Virus record (IMG/VR): IMGVR_UViG_3300032332_000934
Coordinates: 50,967 to 114,966 of that record
Source of the DNA: a virus
Lineage: Duplodnaviria > Caudoviricetes
Length of the DNA: 64,000 bases
Direction: 5' to 3' (one strand)
The position numbers and the translations under genes are program-made. Below the pieces are notes generated by a model, which saw only the letters and a list, made by a program, of their open reading frames with translations, was not told where the DNA came from and made no database searches. How positions within the stretch are numbered: the stretch's first letter is position 1; each line of letters opens with the position of its first letter. This document shows, in pieces, positions 25,128 through 62,855 of this stretch.

Positions 25128-25364
25128 TTACCATTTACCTACAGGGCAAGTGGCTCCTTTAAGCTTTGTCTTTGCTGGCATAAAACATCCGCATTCCTGG
25201 CATGTCTTGACGCCGTTATTAAATTTTGGGCAGGCTTGGCATAATGAATATCTTGAGATTGCATCTTCTTCTGAGACATATTCTGTATTTGGATTTAAAA
25301 AATCCCACGGTTTTACATCATCGGAATTTACAAGTTTTTTAACCTGCTCCCACTTACTCACCAT
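25128..25364 (-). CDS. Small Cys-rich metal-binding protein
   Basis: CxxC...CxxCxC...CPxGKW. Confidence 0.7.
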   Translation of the reverse strand: MVSKWEQVKKLVNSDDVKPWDFLNPNTEYVSEEDAISRYSLCQACPKFNNGVKTCQECGCFMPAKTKLKGATCPVGKW

Positions 25365-25590
25365 CTGTTTGCCTCAATTCAAAAGACACGCCATTCCAAA
25401 AATAATTTGCCCCTGCTTTTGGGAAATCTGGTATATCAATATCAACATCTTCCAGATCTACCAATATTGGTGTGCTTGAAAGCCCAGCCCTTAAAAGATC
25501 AGTCCCAGGCCCAGCAATATTAAACCATCCTGCGTATTCGCCATTCACAAGAACCATATATGTGCTTCCTTGCATATCTGATTTATTCAT
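25354..25590 (-). CDS. Small fibre-associated protein with W[DN]GxxF motif
   Basis: VNGE...WNGVSF; own promoter TAGACA-N17-TAGAAT at 25613-25641. Confidence 0.55.
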   Translation of the reverse strand: MNKSDMQGSTYMVLVNGEYAGWFNIAGPGTDLLRAGLSSTPILVDLEDVDIDIPDFPKAGANYFWNGVSFELRQTDGE

Positions 25591-25652
25591 AATCTCTCCA
25601 TAACATTACAGTATTCTATCATTTCTATAAAATTTTGTCTAGCAACTTATTA

Positions 25653-26231
25653 CTATTTGCCAAAAGATATCACAGAATATTTTGTTCCCTCTAGTACAGG
25701 AAGTACTCTATGAATATACTCTATAGATGAAGGGAAAATAATAAGACTATCCTTAGATGGTTTGATTGGCATAGTATAGGCTTTATTCTTAAATTGAATC
25801 TCTCCACCCTCATAATCATCATTTATATAGTACACAAAAGATATCTTAGACGGGTGAGGAATTCCGTCATCTGAATGCCATGTAACGCTTTGTCCTTTTT
25901 CATACCTAAGAAGCTCCCACGGCTCTCTTTCTTTAATCTTTATTCCGCTTTTTTTTACAAAGTCTACTAGGCAATCTGAAACTGCTGTATCTATTTTTTT
26001 ATTCAATATCTTTTTTGCATTATTATAATTAATCCCATCCTGCTCATTTGCGTATAAAGAAAAAACAGTGCATGATCTTAGGGATAAGTCATAATCCCTA
26101 TTATTCATTGTTGATTGGCTAAAATCTTTTTTGTACAGATTAAATATACTATATACTTCTTTAAGGATATCTAAATCTGAGCCAATCACATCTTTATAAA
26201 TCAATATGTTGTTTCCTAAGTCTTGTATCAT
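25653..26231 (-). CDS. 2OG-Fe(II) oxygenase #5
   Basis: HSD...YINDDYEGGE...FPS...H.V.PV..GTKY; TAATG-coupled to the upstream Hint protein. Confidence 0.88.
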   Translation of the reverse strand: MIQDLGNNILIYKDVIGSDLDILKEVYSIFNLYKKDFSQSTMNNRDYDLSLRSCTVFSLYANEQDGINYNNAKKILNKKIDTAVSDCLVDFVKKSGIKIKEREPWELLRYEKGQSVTWHSDDGIPHPSKISFVYYINDDYEGGEIQFKNKAYTMPIKPSKDSLIIFPSSIEYIHRVLPVLEGTKYSVISFGK

Positions 26232-29200
26232 TAGTCTGGTATCTGCTTATCTGAATAATTGTGAGCCATTATACCTTCGGCAAAGTATATGTCCTTACTT
26301 TCAATATTAATAGAAACTGTGTCCACTTCCTCATTAATTAAAATTTTTGAATAGATTTCCACTATTTGGAGATCTTCGTTCATTATCTTGTTACCTAACT
26401 CAAGATCCCTGATGGATACAAATTTCCAAACCCCGTCTTTTTGTGCTGGAACCATATGCTCATAAGTTATTTTAATTGTATCATTAATAATATAGTATTG
26501 TCCATAAGATCTTATAACAACATTTGTAACTACAGCAGTAGTTTTTGTTGTTTCAGATATGTCATCCGATGACCATAGGTGCATATTAGTTATATCAAAC
26601 TCGTTATCCTGAAGTCCTGGGATTTCAGCAGCCATGACCTCATCTCCAATATAAAGATCTTCTATGTTTTTCCAGGTTCCGTCTGACATTTGAATTTGTG
26701 TTCCTACTACGTGGCAGCCTCCGCCTCCGCCAGTATTGACCGTATTTACAGTGTTAACAGTGTTAACATTATTGACAGTATTTACAGTATTGACGGTATT
26801 CACATTGTTTACAGTATTTACGTTGTTTACAGTATTGACTGTATTTACAGTATTAACTGTGTTAATAGTATTAATTGTATTAATAGTATTAATTGTATTG
26901 ATAGTATTAATTGTATTAATTGAATTACATGCTCGATATTCAAATTCATAACCATTTACTTCTCTAGTAGATAGTGTTGCACAGCTTGAATTTATACATG
27001 TTTCAATTGCTGTATAGGAACGTGATCTTGCTTCTTCTCCCTGATAGCATGAACCCCAAGCTGTCCAGGCTCCATATGATTTTGTTCCTACAGTACAGCC
27101 TGCGGTGCAGCAAGCAATGTACTCATATTCTGTTCCATTGACTTCTGTTGTAGTGCTGTTACAACTAGTATCAATATTAGTTTGTATTGCAGTCCAACTT
27201 CTTGATCTAGCACGTTCACCTTGGATACAGGATCCGTAGGCTGTCCATGCACCATAAGTTTTAGTGCCAGTTGTACTACTTGCCGTGCAGCAGCCAGTGT
27301 ACTCAAAATCTGTACCGCTAACTGTTTCAGTTGTATTAGTACAACTTGTTGTAAAGCATGATTGTGTAGCAGTCCAACTCCTCGATCTAGCACGTTCGCC
27401 CTGAATACAGCTACCAAATGCAGTCCATGCGCCATAGGTTTTTGCTCCAGTTGTACAGGACTGAACACAGCATGCTGTATATTCATATTCAGTTCCACTA
27501 ACTTCACTTGCAGAAACTAAATTGCAACTAGTGTCTATACATGTATTTATTGCCGTCCAAGATCTTGATCTTGCACGTTCTCCCTGAATACAGGATCCAT
27601 AGCCTGTCCAGGCTCCGTATGATTTTGCACCTAGCGTACAACCTGCAGTGCAACATGAGGTATATTCATACTCTGTGCCATTTACCTCTTTAGTTGTTGT
27701 TGTGCAGTTAATTGTATTGCTTGTTTCAATAGCAGTCCATGAGCGTGATCTAGCACGTTCACCTTGGATACAAGAACCAAATGCTGTCCAAGCTCCGTAA
27801 GTTTTGATTCCAATTGATGTACTTGCAGAGCAACAATTTTTATACTCAGTATCGTAACCAGTTGTTGTAACATATATAGTTGTGCAGTCCCTTGTTGTTT
27901 GTGTATCAGTTGCTGTCCATGGAATAGTTCTTCCAATTTGTCCAGTATTTAAATTACATGTCCCCCAAGCATTTGGAGTTCCATAAGTTTTAGGTCCAAG
28001 TGAGGAGGTGGGGACACAACAATTTACTTGCTCTGTTTCGCTTCCAGATAACTCAACAGTAGTTATTACACAATTTTTAGAAGTTGTTTTTTGATTTTGA
28101 GTCCATGTTCTTGTTCTATTTCTTTGTGGGTCTGCTGGATATGCTGTACACAGTCCGTATGTCCAATCTGAATAAACTTTAGGTTCTAAAACAACTAATG
28201 GGCAACATAGATTATCAATTTGAGAACATTCTATTGCATAATAAGATCCATTTATAGTTTTATCATATGTTTCTGTAGATTTGGAGCAAAGGCCACCAGT
28301 AACTGTTGATAAACAATACCAAGTTCCTCCAATAATTATACATACTGCACTTGATGTTACATAATCATATGAAACTGCAGTTAAATTTATATTATCTATT
28401 TTAGAAGTTATTGCCGTTAAGCATGAATTAGCTCCAGCAGTTACTCCTGTTACGGTTATCACATCTAAAGACCGAGTTGCCGTTCCGCTTGTTGCAGAAA
28501 CTGTTATATCAAACGTGCTTACTGTACTCCAATTGGTTATATTAACTTTATAACCAGATGAAGTTATATCATATGGCGCTCCTAAAGTTGCAGCAATTCC
28601 ATTTGAAAGTGTTCTAAAGCTCTTGGATATCTTATCGCTTTTATACTTATCATCTTGTCCAGCCAGCGCCGTTACTGAGACAGTATATAATCTATTTTCG
28701 CTTAAACCATAGGGACTAGATGAAGTAGTTGATGTTGAATTTAGCGGGTAACCTCCCAAAGAGTTTGCTGTAATAGAATCAATTAACTCAACCTTATACC
28801 TTTCAGCATTTGTTGAATACCAAGATATATCTGCGGAGCTTTTTGTTCTATTTGATATGGTTATTGTTGGATTTTCTATTTTTCTTGGCGGGGTAAATAC
28901 ATAAGATGCAACTCTTTGAGTTTCAGACATATCCAATAAATGTCCATCCAGCGATAACCCGCTATTATAATAATAATCATTTGCAATGGCATAAACATTA
29001 ATAATATAATCTTCTCCAGAATCAAGCATTGCTTGTGTATAAGTAATTGATGCTGAATATTGATGTGTTGTTGATAAAGATATACTTTGCAGATCCCCAA
29101 TTCTGGTTCCATAAAAATCAGTAAGTTCAACTATTTGCTTTCCAATAAATTCATTTGTCCGAGAAGATGGGAAATATTGACCAGTTGGATAAGTTGATAA

Positions 29201-29911
29201 TGCAGATGTAAGATATTGCCATTTAAGTCCAAATATTTTATTATCTTTATTACTTAATGTTTCATCTTCAACTATTTGATCGCCTGTGCTATATGTATAA
29301 AATTCAAAGTTAAGTTTTGGAAATATACCTGTAGCACTTGGGTACCATGTTGTTGCCAACAAGTAATCTGCCTCAGTTGGGTTTGCATCTATAGCTGCTT
29401 GAACCTGTGCCCTAAATCCTCTTTTGCTTTTAATGTCATCGAGTGTTATTACTGGTCTATTTGCAGGTAGCTTAGGAACCTCATCTAAATAATCTGAATC
29501 CTGATAGGTTGTATACTGGAGCTCTTCACTAATTAATGTTGTTGGAGCATCCCAATTTGTAATTATAGACTTTTGTATTTTAATTAAAAATGATAGCGGA
29601 TCTTCATACCACTTACCTCTTGTAACATACATTTTATCTTGCTGACTACATTCATATTTTGATTCGATTGAGCTTGTAGATACAAAAATTAATTGTGGAT
29701 TTATTTTTGGATAAGGAAAAGCTGCGCCAAAAATTCTTTCCCATATTCCGCTTGGGTTAAGTCGCCACATGCTTTTAATTTTAATCCAGCCGCCAACTGC
29801 GCCGCTAGTTTGTGTTGGTGAAGCTTTTCTCCAGATGCTTTTCATTTTAATCCAGCCGCCAACATTATGAGCGCCAGTATCTCCTGGTGAAGCTTTTCTC
29901 CAAACAGACAT
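26231..29911 (-). CDS. Large virion fibre/adhesin-like protein: Fn3 + 7 TSP1-like Cys repeats + ([IV]N[TN])21 + C-terminal Hint domain
   Basis: Fn3 (SADISW...Y.V...LSENRLYTVSVTA), YGAWTAFGSC..GERARSRSW repeats, GGGGG-CHVVGT...IEDL.IGDEV...AHN. Confidence 0.8.
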   Translation of the reverse strand: MSVWRKASPGDTGAHNVGGWIKMKSIWRKASPTQTSGAVGGWIKIKSMWRLNPSGIWERIFGAAFPYPKINPQLIFVSTSSIESKYECSQQDKMYVTRGKWYEDPLSFLIKIQKSIITNWDAPTTLISEELQYTTYQDSDYLDEVPKLPANRPVITLDDIKSKRGFRAQVQAAIDANPTEADYLLATTWYPSATGIFPKLNFEFYTYSTGDQIVEDETLSNKDNKIFGLKWQYLTSALSTYPTGQYFPSSRTNEFIGKQIVELTDFYGTRIGDLQSISLSTTHQYSASITYTQAMLDSGEDYIINVYAIANDYYYNSGLSLDGHLLDMSETQRVASYVFTPPRKIENPTITISNRTKSSADISWYSTNAERYKVELIDSITANSLGGYPLNSTSTTSSSPYGLSENRLYTVSVTALAGQDDKYKSDKISKSFRTLSNGIAATLGAPYDITSSGYKVNITNWSTVSTFDITVSATSGTATRSLDVITVTGVTAGANSCLTAITSKIDNINLTAVSYDYVTSSAVCIIIGGTWYCLSTVTGGLCSKSTETYDKTINGSYYAIECSQIDNLCCPLVVLEPKVYSDWTYGLCTAYPADPQRNRTRTWTQNQKTTSKNCVITTVELSGSETEQVNCCVPTSSLGPKTYGTPNAWGTCNLNTGQIGRTIPWTATDTQTTRDCTTIYVTTTGYDTEYKNCCSASTSIGIKTYGAWTAFGSCIQGERARSRSWTAIETSNTINCTTTTKEVNGTEYEYTSCCTAGCTLGAKSYGAWTGYGSCIQGERARSRSWTAINTCIDTSCNLVSASEVSGTEYEYTACCVQSCTTGAKTYGAWTAFGSCIQGERARSRSWTATQSCFTTSCTNTTETVSGTDFEYTGCCTASSTTGTKTYGAWTAYGSCIQGERARSRSWTAIQTNIDTSCNSTTTEVNGTEYEYIACCTAGCTVGTKSYGAWTAWGSCYQGEEARSRSYTAIETCINSSCATLSTREVNGYEFEYRACNSINTINTINTINTINTINTINTVNTVNTVNTVNNVNTVNNVNTVNTVNTVNNVNTVNTVNTVNTGGGGGCHVVGTQIQMSDGTWKNIEDLYIGDEVMAAEIPGLQDNEFDITNMHLWSSDDISETTKTTAVVTNVVIRSYGQYYIINDTIKITYEHMVPAQKDGVWKFVSIRDLELGNKIMNEDLQIVEIYSKILINEEVDTVSINIESKDIYFAEGIMAHNYSDKQIPD
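26258..26716 (-). other. Hint (bacterial intein-like) autoprocessing domain
   Basis: C1 in CHVVGT, block B ITYEH, terminal HN followed by Tyr. Confidence 0.85.
26732..26920 (-). repeat. Tripeptide repeat (INT)7 then (VN[T/N])14
   Basis: 21 degenerate 9-bp units with varied synonymous codons. Confidence 0.95.
26927..28210 (-). repeat. Seven ~60-aa (~180 bp) TSP1-like Cys-rich repeats
   Basis: K[TS]YGAWT..GSC.QGE.ARSRSWTA...GTEYEY..CC repeated; first two copies diverged. Confidence 0.9.
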
Positions 29912-32406
29912 TATGCTTTCCTACTTAAATAAATATCTCCGCCTAAAGCATAGGAATCTAAAAAATCAAGTTGCGATGCAAGTCTGTCTTGTGGGTGATA
30001 ATTTCCACCATAATAAAAAACTCTTCCACCATTTAAATATCCAGTGGATCTTGAAACAGTCACAGTCTGATCTCCCCAAACGCTATCTCCATCGGTTGGT
30101 AGTCTACTACCAGGGGATACCAATTGCAAGCCACCAGTTACTGCATTTGCACCAATAAGGTTAATATTAAATGTTGATCCGTCAAATGTAAGTTTGCCAT
30201 CTGCAAGGCTAAAGCTTCCATATGGCTTTGTTGTATTGCCAATTGTTGTGCTTTTACCTAACAAGTAATCATTTGAAAAGCTTTTGCCTGATCCTAAAAA
30301 TACATTGGATGCAATTAAATCTGTTTTAACTTTAAAATCAGTTCCATCGTATGTTAAATCTCCATTAGCTAGCCTGAAGTTTCCAGATGAAGATATATAA
30401 TCAACATTACCTGGATTTCCGCTTCCTTCTCCAGGATAGGCTGTTGTCCAATCAGATGGGCTCATAAAATAATGATTTGAGCCAACAATGTTTCCGCCTA
30501 TTATTGAGCCTTGTAAGCCATCTAGTGTGACTTGTGATGTTAAATTTGTAGATACTATTTTTGCAGAATCAATTGTCCATCCATCTGAAACCTTATATCC
30601 AGTTGCAGTAGTTGCATCTGATACAAGTATTCCAAAGCCACCTTCTCCAGCTTGAACCATTCCTTTAAGAACGGCGTCCTTGGCAATCATCTTTCCTGCG
30701 TATGTAACTGAGAAATTAGGACTTACTGTTCTAGATCCTCCAGCCCAAATTGCAACATCTGAGGGAGTTGTTGTGGCAAAGAAACCTACGTTGCCAGCCT
30801 TGTTAATTGATGTATCGTCAATTGTCCATCCCGCTATTGTTCCTTTATTAGCAATAATTCCATTTACTGTATCTAACTGAAATAGTTTTCCAACTGAGTC
30901 CGTACCCTGGATTCCAACACCAATTTTTGCTCCAGCAGTATTAGTTAGTTTTCCTATTTCAAATTTTCCAGAAGATGTTGTGACTCTGAGTTGTCCGTCT
31001 ACTAGTGCTGTTCCTATGTCAACAGATCCAGTAAATGCTCCAGCGTTAGCATTTATTTTTCCAGTTATTTCTAAATTAGTTCCATTCCAATAAAGCCAAT
31101 CGCTAACTCCGCCAACTTTAAATCTAGCTGCAGAAGAAACGCTTGTGTTTCCAGTAACATACCAATAATTTTCTGGCGCTATATACAGACCTTTATTTGA
31201 GTTGTCTCCACCAATTCCATATCCAAGCTTCATGTCTCCTGCAGATATTGCAACATCTGTCTTTAATGATGTGTTGGATGGAATTACTATGTTTGGATAT
31301 TGTTTATATACAGAGTTATCGTTCCCATAAACATCATATGTTGTTACGGCTATTTGATAAGTTTGACCAGCTTTTAATCCATACAAATATGTTGATACTG
31401 TAGCTCTTCCTGGAACAGACATGTATGTGTAATTAGAATCAGAAGCAGTCTTGTATCTTATTCTGTACCCAGAGGTTGAAGTATCTGTATTTTGCGTCCA
31501 GGTAAATAAAATCTTTTTGTCAAAGTTAAAGAGTCCGTTAGAGTCATCTTCAACGGTTGTAGATCCTAAATCAAAATTATTTTCTGGTGGTAGATCGTCA
31601 AAAACAATAGGGTCATAAGCTTTACCCTCTTTAATGTCTGAGTTTAGAGATTCGCATTCAGAATAGGATAGGTGATTAAGCTTTACATAAACCGTAGCTA
31701 ATGTATCTAATATTATTGACGCTGGGCCAATTCCTGTATATCTAAGCTCCCAATTATAAGGACTAGGTGTTTCTGAAACATATACCCTGGTTTCTCTATA
31801 AGTTCCGTATCCAGTTGCGCTATCCTGCCAAGAAACAAGTATGCCGTTGCTTTGGCTAACAACATTCCATGAGGCTGCTAGTGTTGTATGAGAACATACT
31901 GGGTCTACATATTCTGCAACTGTTACTGGACATTCATCTGAGCTTCCATCTCCATAAACGCTTTGGATAGAAAAAGATGTAAATGATTTTCTAAACACTC
32001 CTCCAAATTGAAATATGTTGTTTTCTCTTGTTAATACCCACGAGTAGTTTAAAGAAGATCCAGAAGCTGAAACAAGGTGGGACCTTCTGTACCCACCAGC
32101 TGTAAGAGTAATTACATAATTTTTTACACGATTATCATTTTTTTGCCAGCTTACATTTAATCCAGCTTTTGCATCCCATGAAGCAACAACATTTATTGGG
32201 CATACTCTTGATGGGCCAACCGTTCTGAAATTAAATCTATCTGAGAATTCGCTAGAACCTAATGACTTGTCACTGTATATCCAAGCAACCTGAAGTGCGT
32301 AATCAGTATCACAGTCTAAATCTGGGATTACGACATCCCAGTAATCACCATCTTGTTTTTGTGTGATACCTAGATCTGGATACTGTTCAGACATGCTACT
32401 CGCCAA
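29911..32406 (-). CDS. Tail protein with Fn3 domains and beta-helical repeats
   Basis: Fn3 (FTW...GYRIRYK...GLKAGQTYQIAV), GTIAGWTI repeats, ends GDIYL. Confidence 0.7.
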   Translation of the reverse strand: MASSMSEQYPDLGITQKQDGDYWDVVIPDLDCDTDYALQVAWIYSDKSLGSSEFSDRFNFRTVGPSRVCPINVVASWDAKAGLNVSWQKNDNRVKNYVITLTAGGYRRSHLVSASGSSLNYSWVLTRENNIFQFGGVFRKSFTSFSIQSVYGDGSSDECPVTVAEYVDPVCSHTTLAASWNVVSQSNGILVSWQDSATGYGTYRETRVYVSETPSPYNWELRYTGIGPASIILDTLATVYVKLNHLSYSECESLNSDIKEGKAYDPIVFDDLPPENNFDLGSTTVEDDSNGLFNFDKKILFTWTQNTDTSTSGYRIRYKTASDSNYTYMSVPGRATVSTYLYGLKAGQTYQIAVTTYDVYGNDNSVYKQYPNIVIPSNTSLKTDVAISAGDMKLGYGIGGDNSNKGLYIAPENYWYVTGNTSVSSAARFKVGGVSDWLYWNGTNLEITGKINANAGAFTGSVDIGTALVDGQLRVTTSSGKFEIGKLTNTAGAKIGVGIQGTDSVGKLFQLDTVNGIIANKGTIAGWTIDDTSINKAGNVGFFATTTPSDVAIWAGGSRTVSPNFSVTYAGKMIAKDAVLKGMVQAGEGGFGILVSDATTATGYKVSDGWTIDSAKIVSTNLTSQVTLDGLQGSIIGGNIVGSNHYFMSPSDWTTAYPGEGSGNPGNVDYISSSGNFRLANGDLTYDGTDFKVKTDLIASNVFLGSGKSFSNDYLLGKSTTIGNTTKPYGSFSLADGKLTFDGSTFNINLIGANAVTGGLQLVSPGSRLPTDGDSVWGDQTVTVSRSTGYLNGGRVFYYGGNYHPQDRLASQLDFLDSYALGGDIYLSRKA

Positions 32407-60094: not shown

Positions 60095-60811
60095 TTAAAT
60101 ATCACTAGGGCTATCCTGTATAACCTTTAGCTTTAAAGCTTTTATTTCATGATCTCCAAGTTTATTGCCCTTATGGTCAAAACCATTTCTATAAAAATCA
60201 GACCAACTAAGTTTTTTGTTTATTTCATGAATTGCCATAGAGTATTCATATAATTCTTTTTGTGAGACTTCTTGATCTTTTGGTTCAACTTCTACATGAA
60301 TCTCTGAATTATTTAAATCTGTCAATTTTATCGGTATTATAGAGCATATTGGGTGGCCAGCTGGAATTGTAATTTTTTTGTTTGGTGAAGTAATCATCCA
60401 GGCTACTGGAAGATCTGCTCTAAAAAAAGATGTACTTATTAGTGTTGTAAAAGGATATGCTCCGTCAATAAAAAAATTAGGCGCTGGCATAGTTAATAAA
60501 GTTGTATCTTTTTCAGTTTTAAATTTAATTCCAGTATTAAAACTTATTGTTCCGTTTGCTCTTCCTGGGTAAGCATACTTTTCACCTGATAAAATTTTAA
60601 CATGAGATGGATCAAAATTTGAAATACCATCCCAAATAAAAGTTATATCTTCTGGGAAACTTAAATACCATCCTAATGTATTTGTTAAAGTTACTGGAAA
60701 ACAATGATAGGCATGCTTTTGCCAAGTGCTATCCATCCAATCTCTTTTAACTGGAAGAGTATTTATTTCTGCAAAACCTTCTTTGGTTTTATAAGCTTTT
60801 ATTATTTCCAC
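60095..60811 (-). CDS. DUF6065-like protein
   Basis: RDWMD...HAYHCFP...N..GW...WDG...PN motifs. Confidence 0.7.
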   Translation of the reverse strand: MEIIKAYKTKEGFAEINTLPVKRDWMDSTWQKHAYHCFPVTLTNTLGWYLSFPEDITFIWDGISNFDPSHVKILSGEKYAYPGRANGTISFNTGIKFKTEKDTTLLTMPAPNFFIDGAYPFTTLISTSFFRADLPVAWMITSPNKKITIPAGHPICSIIPIKLTDLNNSEIHVEVEPKDQEVSQKELYEYSMAIHEINKKLSWSDFYRNGFDHKGNKLGDHEIKALKLKVIQDSPSDI

Positions 60812-61484
60812 TCAATGCACTTTCTCTTGCAGCGGCAGAGTTGGTCCTTTTCATTCTAAGAAGATCAAACTCCTGATTATGAGTATTGTCATTGTAATCA
60901 AGCATTGTAACTATTGAATACTTAATTCCTGATTTGACTGGCATTGCTCTGTGTGAAAACAAATAAGTTGAAGGAAAAATAACTATGTCTCCAGCTTCTG
61001 GAGTTATGGTTAAGTTAAGTTTAGGGAAATATAATTCCCCTCCTTCATAGTCATCGTTTGGATACGAAACCAATGAAACTGTTGCTATATAAGAAAATCC
61101 ATGATCTGAATGCTCTTGGAAATGTTGACCTTCTCCATATTTAATGAAGTTCATTGCTTCCCAAAATTGCATATCAATATTATAAAGCTTACAGTAATCT
61201 TTAACTGCATCTATTTGCATATCGTATGCGTTTTGCCAGATTTTATTTAAATGTTTTCTGCTTTCTGGCATGTTAGGCATTTCCTGTTTTTGAATTTTAA
61301 AATCTACACAGTCTCTATATGAAGGTACTTTTACATCATAACCTACTGTTGCTTCTCGCCATTCAAATTCATCATCATACTTAGACAATAGATTTTCTAC
61401 GTCATTGATAATATTTTTATCTATTTGATTTTTATAAACCCATAGACCAGGAGATATCTCATTTTTTAAAATATCCTTACTCAA
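60789..61484 (-). CDS. 2OG-Fe(II) oxygenase #10
   Basis: HSD...NDDYEGGELYF...AGD..FPS...H..MPV..GIKY. Confidence 0.88.
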   Translation of the reverse strand: MSKDILKNEISPGLWVYKNQIDKNIINDVENLLSKYDDEFEWREATVGYDVKVPSYRDCVDFKIQKQEMPNMPESRKHLNKIWQNAYDMQIDAVKDYCKLYNIDMQFWEAMNFIKYGEGQHFQEHSDHGFSYIATVSLVSYPNDDYEGGELYFPKLNLTITPEAGDIVIFPSTYLFSHRAMPVKSGIKYSIVTMLDYNDNTHNQEFDLLRMKRTNSAAARESALSGNNKSL

Positions 61485-61496
61485 TTTTAAAGCTCC

Positions 61497-61901
61497 CTAC
61501 TCTGTGAAAGAAGTACCATCCCAGGACATGCCAGTTTTTATTGCTGTGCTATCCATTTCAGTTACATCAATTGCAGAAATCCCATTGACTTCTGCATCCT
61601 TGTAGAGAGTATATCTTTTTTGAGTATAAACTCTTACAACTGCTTTTATTGTATTATCAGATACAAGTGCTACTGAATATGGTGAAGCTTCTTTTCTTTC
61701 TTCATCAAACTCAGAGAACACGTTGCCATCCCAAGTAGAATTTAATTTAACCTTTTTAGTTTCGGTTATATCTTTACATAAAAAATTAGAATTAAATAGC
61801 TCTGTAAATCTCTCTAATCTATTTGCATCTTCTTCTACATTTTCTACTTCAATCTTATCAATAACTTTATTTAATGATAGGAGTACGTAATTTTTTATCA
61901 T
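61497..61901 (-). CDS. Fibre-associated protein with two WDGxxF motifs
   Basis: STWDGNVF and MSWDGTSF; internal duplication. Confidence 0.6.
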   Translation of the reverse strand: MIKNYVLLSLNKVIDKIEVENVEEDANRLERFTELFNSNFLCKDITETKKVKLNSTWDGNVFSEFDEERKEASPYSVALVSDNTIKAVVRVYTQKRYTLYKDAEVNGISAIDVTEMDSTAIKTGMSWDGTSFTE

Positions 61902-61931: not shown

Positions 61932-62855
61932 TTAGTACGCTCTTAAGCTAAAGTATCCGCCAAATGCTGGTGGGCTGAAGAAGCCAGGTGGGAAGAACGG
62001 TGGGCTAAAGAAGCCAGGTGGGAAGAACGGTGGGCTAAAGAAGCCAGGTGGGAAGAACGGTGGACTAAAGAACACTGGCGGAAAGAAAGGTGGGGAAAAG
62101 AAGCCAGGTGGGAAGAACGGTGGGCTAAAGAAGCCAGGTGGGAAGAACGGTGGGCTAAAGAAGCCAGGTGGGAAGAACGGTGGGCTAAAGAAGCCAGGTG
62201 GGAAGAACGGTGGGCTAAAGAATGAAGGGGGCAAAGTTGTAACAGTACTAGAGAAAGCTGAAAATGAACTAGAGCCATTTACATTTCTTGCCCGTACTTT
62301 GTAAGCTTGTGAAGTATTTGCTTCATTTGCAATAGTTGTGCTTCCATTTGATGCGGTTGTAACTGTTTTATTTTTTGGAGTCGTTTCGTTTGATTCAATA
62401 TATATGTCAAGTATTGTCTGTCCACCATTAGCATTAAGTACCCAGCTAATTGTATCTAGGTCAACGCCAGCTGTTGCTGTTGGGGTATTTGGTGCTTGTG
62501 GAACAGTAGTTGCTGTTGCTGCTGGTGCAGCAACTGCATTTGAAGAATTATCTAAATAGGAGTCGTAAGACGAAACTGCATATGTATGTGAAGTATTTGA
62601 CAACAAGCCAGTTATTAAAGCTGTATTTGTGCCATAAGCAACAGTTGCCTTTAGAACTCCAGACTCATAAACTTTATATCCAGTAGGTGTATTTCCTGCT
62701 ACTGGCGCTGACCATGAAACTGTAATTGCTCCGTCATTAAATGGTCTACCGTTGTTTGATCCGTTTAGATAATCTGTTGCGGTTACTCCAGTTACTGGAT
62801 TTGGTCCAATAAAGTTATCTTGAGCAGATGACTTTCTACCTATATGTTTTGACAT
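61932..62855 (-). CDS. Two-Fn3-domain protein with C-terminal Pro/Phe decamer repeats
   Basis: VSWSAP...GYKV...TGL..NT..TYAV, YKVRARN; tail (PPFFPP[G/V]FFS)8. Confidence 0.85.
   Translation of the reverse strand: MSKHIGRKSSAQDNFIGPNPVTGVTATDYLNGSNNGRPFNDGAITVSWSAPVAGNTPTGYKVYESGVLKATVAYGTNTALITGLLSNTSHTYAVSSYDSYLDNSSNAVAAPAATATTVPQAPNTPTATAGVDLDTISWVLNANGGQTILDIYIESNETTPKNKTVTTASNGSTTIANEANTSQAYKVRARNVNGSSSFSAFSSTVTTLPPSFFSPPFFPPGFFSPPFFPPGFFSPPFFPPGFFSPPFFPPGFFSPPFFPPVFFSPPFFPPGFFSPPFFPPGFFSPPFFPPGFFSPPAFGGYFSLRAY
61981..62220 (-). repeat. Eight tandem 30-bp units (+ strand AAGCCAGGTGGGAAGAACGGTGGGCTAAAG)
   Basis: Six identical copies, one with one substitution, one with several synonymous changes plus G>V. 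Confidence 0.97.

Follow-up and report, generated by a model that had tools for sequence, protein, structure and literature searches.

A repeat stalk, a predicted self-processing Hint domain and a coupled prolyl-hydroxylase-type oxygenase at the end of a phage tail operon

We analysed a stretch of 64,000 nucleotides (the window), comprising bases 50967-114966 of the tailed-phage record IMGVR_UViG_3300032332_000934 (Caudoviricetes), which is 114,966 bp long and has direct terminal repeats. At the end of the tail module, the gene of a 1226-amino acid (aa) fibre-like protein is coupled to that of OXY5, a 2-oxoglutarate (2OG)-Fe(II) oxygenase predicted to be of the prolyl 4-hydroxylase (P4H)/prolyl hydroxylase domain (PHD) type. 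The real unit at this operon end is a repeat stalk, a glycine run and a Hint domain together with the coupled oxygenase. An earlier note on this DNA had described a cassette of four genes, for a repeat-bearing protein, a TAATG-coupled oxygenase, a WNGxxF protein and a Cys-rich protein, and all four are present at the coordinates given below. Its account of the 1226-aa protein was correct in the parts it listed, but it overlooked GGGGG and a 153-residue Hint domain that follow the repeat, and this domain alters what the protein is. Judging from the sequence, we regard it as an evenly balanced proposition that OXY5 would act as the dedicated hydroxylase of the repeat stalk in a fibre that processes itself. 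The minus strand carries every gene of this cassette and of a sister cassette with Pro-Phe repeats, and the unit consists of the following features.

26231..29911, minus strand: 1226-aa fibre-like precursor, with a Trp-rich N-terminal motif, Fn3, Cys/Trp/Arg repeats, an (I/V)NT stalk, Gly5, Hint and a Lys-bearing tail
28628..28864, minus strand: Fn3-like domain, residues 350-428 (PF00041, E 0.0011; weak, at 19.5 bits below the 25-bit cut-off)
26927..28210, minus strand: Cys/Trp/Arg-rich repeats of about 60 aa, with five clear units in residues 693-995 and degenerate from about residue 568
26732..26920, minus strand: low-complexity stalk of exactly 21 (I/V)N(T/N) units, residues 998-1060
26717..26731, minus strand: Gly5 run directly ahead of the putative Hint nucleophile, with GGGC invariant in 9 aligned relatives
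26258..26716, minus strand: putative Hint/bacterial-intein-like (BIL) autoprocessing domain of 153 residues, with Cys1066, Thr1149-x-x-His1152 and His1217-Asn1218
26234..26257, minus strand: 8-residue tail YSDKQIPD past His-Asn, whose +1 residue is not a nucleophile and which holds a Lys
25653..26231, minus strand: OXY5, 192-aa 2OG-Fe(II) oxygenase of predicted P4H/PHD type (PF13640, E 1.5e-14; 55.2 bits, over the cut-off of 27)

In transcription order, the structural module starts with a tail-fibre-like protein, the Pro-Phe repeat cassette with its five oxygenases, and the portal and head proteins, and it ends with a 2826-aa open reading frame (ORF), a minor tail protein (phrog_10359), a tail-collar-fibre-like protein, an 831-aa Fn3 protein and the 1226-aa protein with OXY5. 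The 1226-aa gene is the final structural gene of the tail module, and we call its product fibre-like because the gene closes this module. The start codon of OXY5 overlaps the stop codon of the 1226-aa gene in the sequence TAATG (GACTAATGATA).

The unit was traced through about 200 loci (numbered L below), which were obtained by searching viral contigs with OXY5, the Hint domain and WNG78, a small protein encoded downstream, and by one metagenome contig scan. In close relatives the gene order is complete, starting with the 831-aa gene and extending to the small genes downstream. In distant loci the bodies are unrelated, ranging from 300 to 1532 aa and carrying PASTA, Fn3 or Flg_new (Listeria-Bacteroides repeat) domains, but the low-complexity repeat, the Gly run and the Hint domain are retained, and the oxygenase starts -28 to +68 bp from the stop codon. 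The linkage of fibre gene and oxygenase, proposed in the earlier note, is hence kept even on unrelated fibre bodies. The linkers themselves are of many types, among them (INT)n, (VNT)n, (IDT)n, (IAT)n, (IATQNT)n, (GGSTNS/GGSTCSS)n, (PPVVVNTD)n, (QNTQVASPPAPV)n, (YNPYSNPPPYDNT)n, (NPPVYS)n and (FFAPPG)n.

This linkage was counted in 23 non-redundant C-terminal Hint proteins from viral and metagenome contigs, which were less than 80% identical to one another and had room for a downstream gene. With an automatic repeat call, the oxygenase was the next ORF in 14/14 repeat-bearing compared with 2/9 repeat-less proteins (Fisher p 1.5e-4, a value that overstates independence because the loci come from related phages). 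The two exceptions carry imperfect repeats when inspected by eye, so that the oxygenase is next in 16/16 repeat-bearing lineages and in 0/7 repeat-less ones. Hint proteins lacking tandem repeats have no adjoining oxygenase, including one with a Gly5-Cys junction (L141), and no oxygenase is annotated near the tail-cluster proteins that end in Hint in Erwinia jumbo phages and in phage NCTB. The oxygenase therefore tracks the repeats more closely than it tracks the Hint domain, and the idea that it is tied to the Hint domain itself was rejected on the same grounds.

Two loci, L091 and L092, illustrate this exchangeability. Their proteins retain the 1226-aa body at 70% and 59% identity, with (PFFP)n at the end, and both loci lack the Hint domain as well as OXY5; the promoter-like site and the small genes WNG78 and Cys78 downstream stay in place, such that only the (INT)n-Hint-OXY5 block is replaced. 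The L091 phage encodes OXY10-type enzymes elsewhere on the contig, a pattern that fits a Pro-Phe tail served by a Pro-Phe-type enzyme. Furthermore, where a Hint protein has a YNPPPY-type linker, the oxygenase that follows belongs to the other half of the oxygenase tree. As oxygenases of two distant clades stand beside Hint genes, this position was occupied on at least two occasions, and each clade is matched to a repeat chemistry. Seen across loci, such matching suggests a modular tool-kit and not a single oddity.

The stalk is maintained as a peptide. Its 21 units are encoded by 14 distinct 9-nt words with many synonymous codons, and therefore it is the peptide that is conserved and not a DNA microsatellite. 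The copy number of the stalk changes fast, as two otherwise near-identical proteins (L006:3904-7980 and L008:3832-7980) differ by 24 residues in (INT)/(IDT).

The domain that follows the stalk and the Gly run has the attributes of a Hint fold. In an alignment of 9 sequences that are 44-77% identical (A1), C6, T89, H92, H157 and N158 are invariant, which correspond to Cys1066, Thr1149, His1152, His1217 and Asn1218. The AlphaFold model of the domain has a predicted local distance difference test (pLDDT) score of 81 and a predicted template modelling (pTM) score of 0.77, and a Foldseek search with it returned BIL2 of Tetrahymena BUBL1 as the best Protein Data Bank (PDB) matches (6y75/6tmm, E 7.5e-9, template modelling (TM) score 0.70-0.77), followed by the Clostridium thermocellum BIL domain 2lwy and then by inteins and Hedgehog (1at0). 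Six Pfam Hint-type families match the domain, each under its own cut-off; among them, the bits (cut-off) are 24.2 (32.1) for Hom_end_hint, 17.8 (29.7) for Hint, 15.8 (27.7) for PT-HINT, 15.8 (28.4) for Hint_2 and 13.9 (27) for Vint. A word-based protein search with the Hint region gave only 2 matches. By its sequence, the domain is a divergent member of the superfamily. At the position after His-Asn the proteins have Y, I, N, F, L or A, with S in a single relative. Apart from the curated Pfam cut-offs, every testable sequence and fold feature of an A-type BIL-like Hint domain is present in the sequence and its predicted model, and the domain holds every residue that an N-S acyl shift at Gly1065|Cys1066 and cyclization of Asn1218 would require.

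Other identities of this domain were considered and rejected. A canonical intein would need a C-extein to splice, and there are only 8 residues past His-Asn, beginning with Tyr at +1. The pretoxin HINT domains of polymorphic toxins do not fit tails of 1 to 10 residues that hold no toxin domain, and PF07591 matches merely at E 0.018. A homing-type mobile element was suggested by PHROG names for oxygenase-like families, which include 'DNA endonuclease', but there is no endonuclease insert and OXY5 has a plain oxygenase fold. The tail itself is short in all cases, with 1 to 10 residues past His-Asn, and contains Lys in 23/23 non-redundant proteins; in three lineages it is a single Lys (HNK and then a stop codon). 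We also rejected the possibility that this Lys arises only because the coupled oxygenase needs a purine-rich ribosome-binding site, as Lys is also found in distant Hint proteins that have no downstream oxygenase, in some of which it makes up the entire tail.

Our literature search for Hint/BIL domains in phage tail fibres found only terminase or replication inteins and general reviews. Within the phage collection, a nucleotide search gave no close relative, and a protein search gave only Hint-domain matches, in Erwinia/Dickeya jumbo phages and in phage NCTB. In phage NCTB (L130) and Erwinia phage pEa_SNUABM_32 (L131), tail-cluster proteins that end in Hint adjoin tail fibre genes, and these proteins are annotated as 'large intein domain protein' and 'virion structural protein'.

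OXY5 resembles known protein hydroxylases. In addition to PF13640, it matches phrog_61 (E 4.5e-24). In an alignment of 13 sequences (A2), H119, D121 and H174 are invariant and K184 is present in at least 90%, being replaced by Arg in one. The model of OXY5 has a pLDDT of 93.7, and its nearest folds are PHD2 with HIF peptides (E 9e-11), the algal P4H (3gze/2jig) with (Ser-Pro)5 and a Pseudomonas P4H with EF-Tu; nearly all of the top fold matches listed are PHD or P4H enzymes. With a sequence profile, a search of the PDB returned PKHD-type hydroxylases, collagen lysyl hydroxylases and a Bacillus anthracis P4H. No FIH or AspH entry was found in these PDB profile matches or among the top fold matches listed, and Pfam gives only PF13640. 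On the basis of its model, OXY5 is thus predicted to be a protein-hydroxylase-type enzyme of the P4H/PHD group and not of the FIH/AspH type. Its closest paralogue belongs to the sister cassette.

60789..61484, minus strand: OXY10, closest paralogue of OXY5 by BLAST, alignment A2 and the tree

OXY5 and OXY10 are reciprocal best full-length BLAST matches (31.6% over 190 aa, E 2e-24), whereas the alignment of OXY5 with the remaining paralogues is confined to the catalytic core. In a maximum-likelihood tree of 48 sequences, the OXY5 clade (12 rows, 100/99) and the OXY10 clade (7 rows, 100/99) unite in a starred clade (96/95), and the ten other oxygenases of the genome fall outside it. The suspicion that OXY5 and OXY10 form one subfamily was well founded on all of these counts, and the motifs from which it arose (R.C, Y..GQ...HSD.G and FPS...HR..PV..G.KYS) are visible in alignment A2.

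We propose that the 1226-aa gene product is the precursor of a surface-binding tail appendage, in which a binding body of Fn3 and Cys/Trp/Arg repeats would be followed by the (I/V)NT stalk, a Gly5 hinge and the Hint/BIL domain. During maturation the Hint domain would remove itself, and the mature fibre would end in the stalk and the Gly run, either free or joined to an amine. From the co-inheritance of the two genes, OXY5 would hydroxylate the low-complexity stalk of the neighbouring precursor. More generally, the OXY5 clade may act on Thr/Asn/Asp-type period-3 repeats, the OXY10 clade on Pro-Phe repeats and a third clade on YNPPPY-type repeats.

Several points weigh against this proposal, in addition to the relatedness of the loci mentioned above. 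OXY5 has a prolyl-hydroxylase fold, yet the (I/V)NT, (IAT) and (IDT) linkers hold neither Pro nor Lys. Most linkers of the OXY5 clade have Asn or Asp at the middle position of the repeat. The L014 linker, however, is (IAT)n with a single final INT, and the L018 linker, in the part displayed, has (IAT)/(IDT) units that lack Asn; both loci keep OXY5-clade enzymes, and Thr is the sole residue common to all OXY5-clade linker types. Either OXY5 has a new specificity or the stalk is not its substrate, and this is the main weakness of the proposal. Moreover, L123 has repeats and a Hint-like domain but no adjoining oxygenase, and the repeats of L091 and L092 likewise have none beside them. There are 10-12 oxygenases per genome, some in arrays far from repeat genes (such as OXY1-4), and oxygenases may simply accumulate at plastic operon ends. 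Finally, the assignment of the 1226-aa protein to the tail, and with it the term fibre, derives from gene position only and is to that extent putative.

These points lead to an alternative that we consider possible though doubtful, in which the repeat-Hint tail and the oxygenase would be co-inherited merely through adjacency at a recombination-prone operon end, and the oxygenases, as auxiliary or takeover genes, would have other targets, such as host proteins, small molecules or nucleic acids. The genome has 12 PF13640-type oxygenases in 115 kb, ten of them in the window, and its arrays of 3 and 5 for the most part lack an adjoining repeat gene; related loci contain up to 9 consecutive oxygenases. 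Simple repeats are natural cross-over points, around which fibre bodies have been swapped, and a stalk with neither Pro nor Lys offers nothing obvious to an enzyme of the prolyl- or lysyl-hydroxylase type. Adjacency, however, does not readily account for an oxygenase that is immediately next, often with overlapping stop and start codons, in 16/16 repeat-bearing lineages and in none of the seven repeat-less Hint proteins, nor for two unrelated oxygenase clades in the same position, nor for the loss of OXY5 along with its repeat type in L091 and L092.

Alternatively, the oxygenase might serve the Hint reaction, either by hydroxylating the Hint domain or by making or modifying the acceptor that resolves the thioester. 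The joint loss of Hint and OXY5 in L091/L092, their joint gain on unrelated bodies and the one invariant Pro of the Hint domain (P38 in alignment A1) are all consistent with this explanation, but we find it unlikely: the seven non-redundant repeat-less C-terminal Hint proteins, L141 with its Gly5-Cys among them, have no adjoining oxygenase, the same is true of the annotated neighbourhoods in the Erwinia jumbo phages and NCTB, and the sister cassette combines repeats and an oxygenase with no Hint domain.

The remaining explanation is that of the earlier note, in which a four-gene cassette would combine FIH/AspH-like beta-hydroxylation of Asn in (VNT)n with a W[DN]GxxF chaperone. Its assessment involves two further small genes, a site between them and OXY5, and WDG134, the W[DN]GxxF protein of the sister cassette.

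25354..25590, minus strand: WNG78, 78 aa, with WNGVSF, in which W..G..F is invariant near the C-terminus (orthologue comparison)
25128..25364, minus strand: Cys78, 78-aa Cys-rich protein (phrog_13558; DUF6171 below its cut-off)
25613..25641, minus strand: promoter-like site TAGACA-N17-(TG)TAGAAT ahead of WNG78, kept in relatives including those that have no OXY5

As the promoter-like site lies between OXY5 and WNG78, WNG78 would open the next transcription unit. The site would thereby mark an operon border within the cassette as first described; WNG78 and Cys78 probably belong to the next unit, and their membership of the module is unsupported. The only feature common to WNG78 and WDG134 is W[DN]GxxF (BLAST E 0.17 over 6 residues; hhalign probability 17% over 16 columns), and searches of Pfam (E up to 5) and PHROG gave no family for either protein. 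W..G..F is invariant among the orthologues of each, and in the other ORFs of the genome the W[DN]GxxF motif was not found beyond one likely chance match. In the Atlas, WNG78 gave a weak lead to tail-fibre-assembly N-terminal domains (Caudo_TAP_N clusters, score 0.80). WNG78 is missing from most of the distant Hint and oxygenase loci and is retained in L091 and L092, where OXY5 is absent. In many loci, by comparison, Cys78 is encoded at most about 3 kb downstream of the Hint protein, and in L121/L122 it comes directly past an oxygenase-less Hint gene; it is the steadier Hint neighbour of the two.

The W[DN]GxxF protein as a chaperone partner of the fibre was therefore not sustained, given small proteins that share only the motif and a WNG78 that has its own promoter-like site and persists where the oxygenase is gone; of the modular design that had been proposed, the linkage of fibre gene and hydroxylase holds and the travelling chaperone does not. 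FIH/AspH-like hydroxylation is likewise weakened by the PF13640 assignment and PHD2/P4H fold of OXY5, with no FIH or AspH among the PDB profile or top fold matches listed, and by orthologues that adjoin (IAT)n/(IDT)n linkers, so that the four-gene explanation as a whole seems very improbable, despite the Asn or Asp in the middle of most OXY5-clade repeats, the invariance of W..G..F in both sets of orthologues and the Atlas lead.

Returning to the self-processing fibre with a hydroxylated stalk, the Hint domain could do more than remove itself. By analogy with BUBL, it might be a ligase that passes the C-terminus of the Gly run from the thioester to the epsilon-amine of a Lys, either the tail Lys in cis or a virion Lys in trans; this is a speculative extension, and on balance a rather improbable one. 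If so, PASTA, Fn3 and Cys/Trp binding modules would be covalently tethered to the particle through a hydroxylated low-complexity spacer, and a sortase-like anchoring would be built into a phage protein, with neither ATP nor a separate enzyme. The smallest relatives, in which PASTA, repeat, Gly run and Hint add up to only 300-334 aa in total, fit the ligase idea because removal of the Hint domain leaves no other domain to hold them on the virion. At L114:5557-6504, L116:4454-5455 and L105:4933-6486, small proteins are built solely from PASTA domains (one to three, scoring over the Pfam cut-off), a repeat of Pro, Tyr and Asn, a Gly run and Hint. PASTA domains are of a peptidoglycan-binding type, and these small relatives suggest binding to Gram-positive cell walls.

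Comparison with known BIL domains shows how much of this architecture has precedents. BIL domains are located in variable, non-conserved proteins (PMC7765530), and the phage Hint domain likewise sits in a variable, non-conserved surface protein and is fused to unrelated bodies. In BIL2 of BUBL, the N-extein becomes linked through its Gly C-terminus to the epsilon-amine of Lys (PMC8616854). Similar to the GG of the BUBL ubiquitin-like domains, Gly residues stand ahead of the phage Hint Cys, and the phage tails always hold Lys. The fold is the same as that of BIL2/BUBL1 (6y75/6tmm) and 2lwy, its best structural matches, and an N-terminal Cys, TxxH and His-Asn are present with neither an endonuclease insert nor a +1 nucleophile, as in A-type BIL domains. 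In contrast to BIL and BUBL, the phage Hint domain is at the extreme C-terminus of a tail-module protein and has a C-extein of merely 1 to 10 residues; a tandem low-complexity stalk stands ahead of it, and the gene directly downstream encodes the coupled oxygenase. Its matches to the curated Pfam Hint families fall under their cut-offs.

Chlorovirus PBCV-1 encodes a prolyl 4-hydroxylase as well as Pro-rich repeat proteins. Like PBCV-1, and like the algal and plant P4H enzymes that act on extensin-like repeats (3gze, 2jig), the phage has a viral P4H-type oxygenase beside low-complexity repeat proteins. The differences are that the phage stalk is Pro-free, that the enzyme is translationally coupled to its candidate substrate, that several oxygenase clades go with several repeat chemistries and that the candidate substrate also bears a Hint domain. 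Phage tail fibres and tailspikes are known to carry C-terminal intramolecular chaperones (the S74 peptidase domain of endosialidase, T5 pb1), which cleave themselves by a Ser-Lys peptidase mechanism. The Hint domain is likewise a C-terminal domain of a phage fibre precursor, whose autocatalytic removal in maturation is proposed, but its fold and chemistry (thioester, Asn cyclization) are unrelated to theirs, and the Hint route would yield an activated, ligatable C-terminus. The sortase-anchored surface proteins of Gram-positive bacteria consist of a binding domain, a Pro/Thr-rich stalk and a C-terminal signal that is processed via a thioester resolved by an amine. The order of parts in the 1226-aa protein is identical, which we take as an analogy only; there is no sortase and no LPXTG, and the thioester would be formed in cis by the Hint domain.

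The combination of a repeat stalk, a Gly run, a Hint domain and a coupled oxygenase was not described in the literature that we searched, and it is built from known kinds of part, namely a BIL domain and a viral P4H with repeat proteins. Phage genomes, those from aquatic environments above all, contain many 2OG-Fe(II) oxygenase genes that have no known substrate, and the repeat stalk provides a concrete candidate. If OXY5 does modify a Pro-free (I/V)NT repeat, this would be a new residue specificity for the PHD/P4H fold, and phage fibres would be added to collagen and extensins among the structural repeats that are hydroxylated. If confirmed, an end of a receptor-binding protein that processes and possibly ligates itself would represent a new route of fibre maturation or anchoring, and such Hint ends, if active, would naturally supply compact tags for C-terminal cleavage or ligation.

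The body of the 1226-aa protein has further features. PF00041 is present in the precomputed annotation of three of its orthologues. The core of the Cys/Trp/Arg repeats is YGAWTxxGSCIQGERARSRSWTA, within a longer pattern CC...core...EYEY that occurs in five to eight copies. A profile search with the repeats (residues 568-997) matched zero Pfam families at E up to 5, TSP_1 included, and a protein search gave only 6 matches, all in close phage relatives and none with a TSP_1 annotation. The pattern of Trp and Arg recalls thrombospondin type 1 repeats, and the repeats are found only in this phage group. Residues 1-60 (29732..29911) hold two to three copies of a Trp/Lys-rich motif, WRKASP...GGWIKxKSxWR, and a similar motif opens an otherwise unrelated 909-aa Hint protein of L111.

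The upstream neighbour of the 1226-aa gene is kept in relatives, and the junction of the two genes is also a stop-start coupling of the TAATG type (CATAATGTCT). It is listed here with the remaining proteins of the sister cassette.

29911..32406, minus strand: 831-aa Fn3-bearing fibre-like protein (PF00041, E 8.7e-7, over the cut-off)
61932..62855, minus strand: 307-aa Fn3 protein ending in (FFSPPFFPPG)n, with no Hint domain
61497..61901, minus strand: WDG134, 134-aa protein with two WDGxxF motifs

The sister cassette had been taken to repeat the same layout, and its parts do recur, but their order differs, being repeat, oxygenase, WNG and Cys at OXY5 and repeat, WDG and oxygenase at OXY10. In three other loci, Pro-Phe repeats are followed by a divergent Hint-like domain (L129:1486-2844, L019:5067-6581 and L123:5191-6444); the repeat types in this set are (PFFPYFPYF)n, (FFAPPG)n and (FGFSPFxV)n, and OXY10-clade oxygenases lie directly downstream in L129 and L019. 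The 307-aa protein of the sister cassette may have lost such a domain. Inside the five-oxygenase array of this cassette, a DUF6065 protein (PF19541, E 3.6e-31) is encoded at 60095..60811, and its position is kept in L127-L129.

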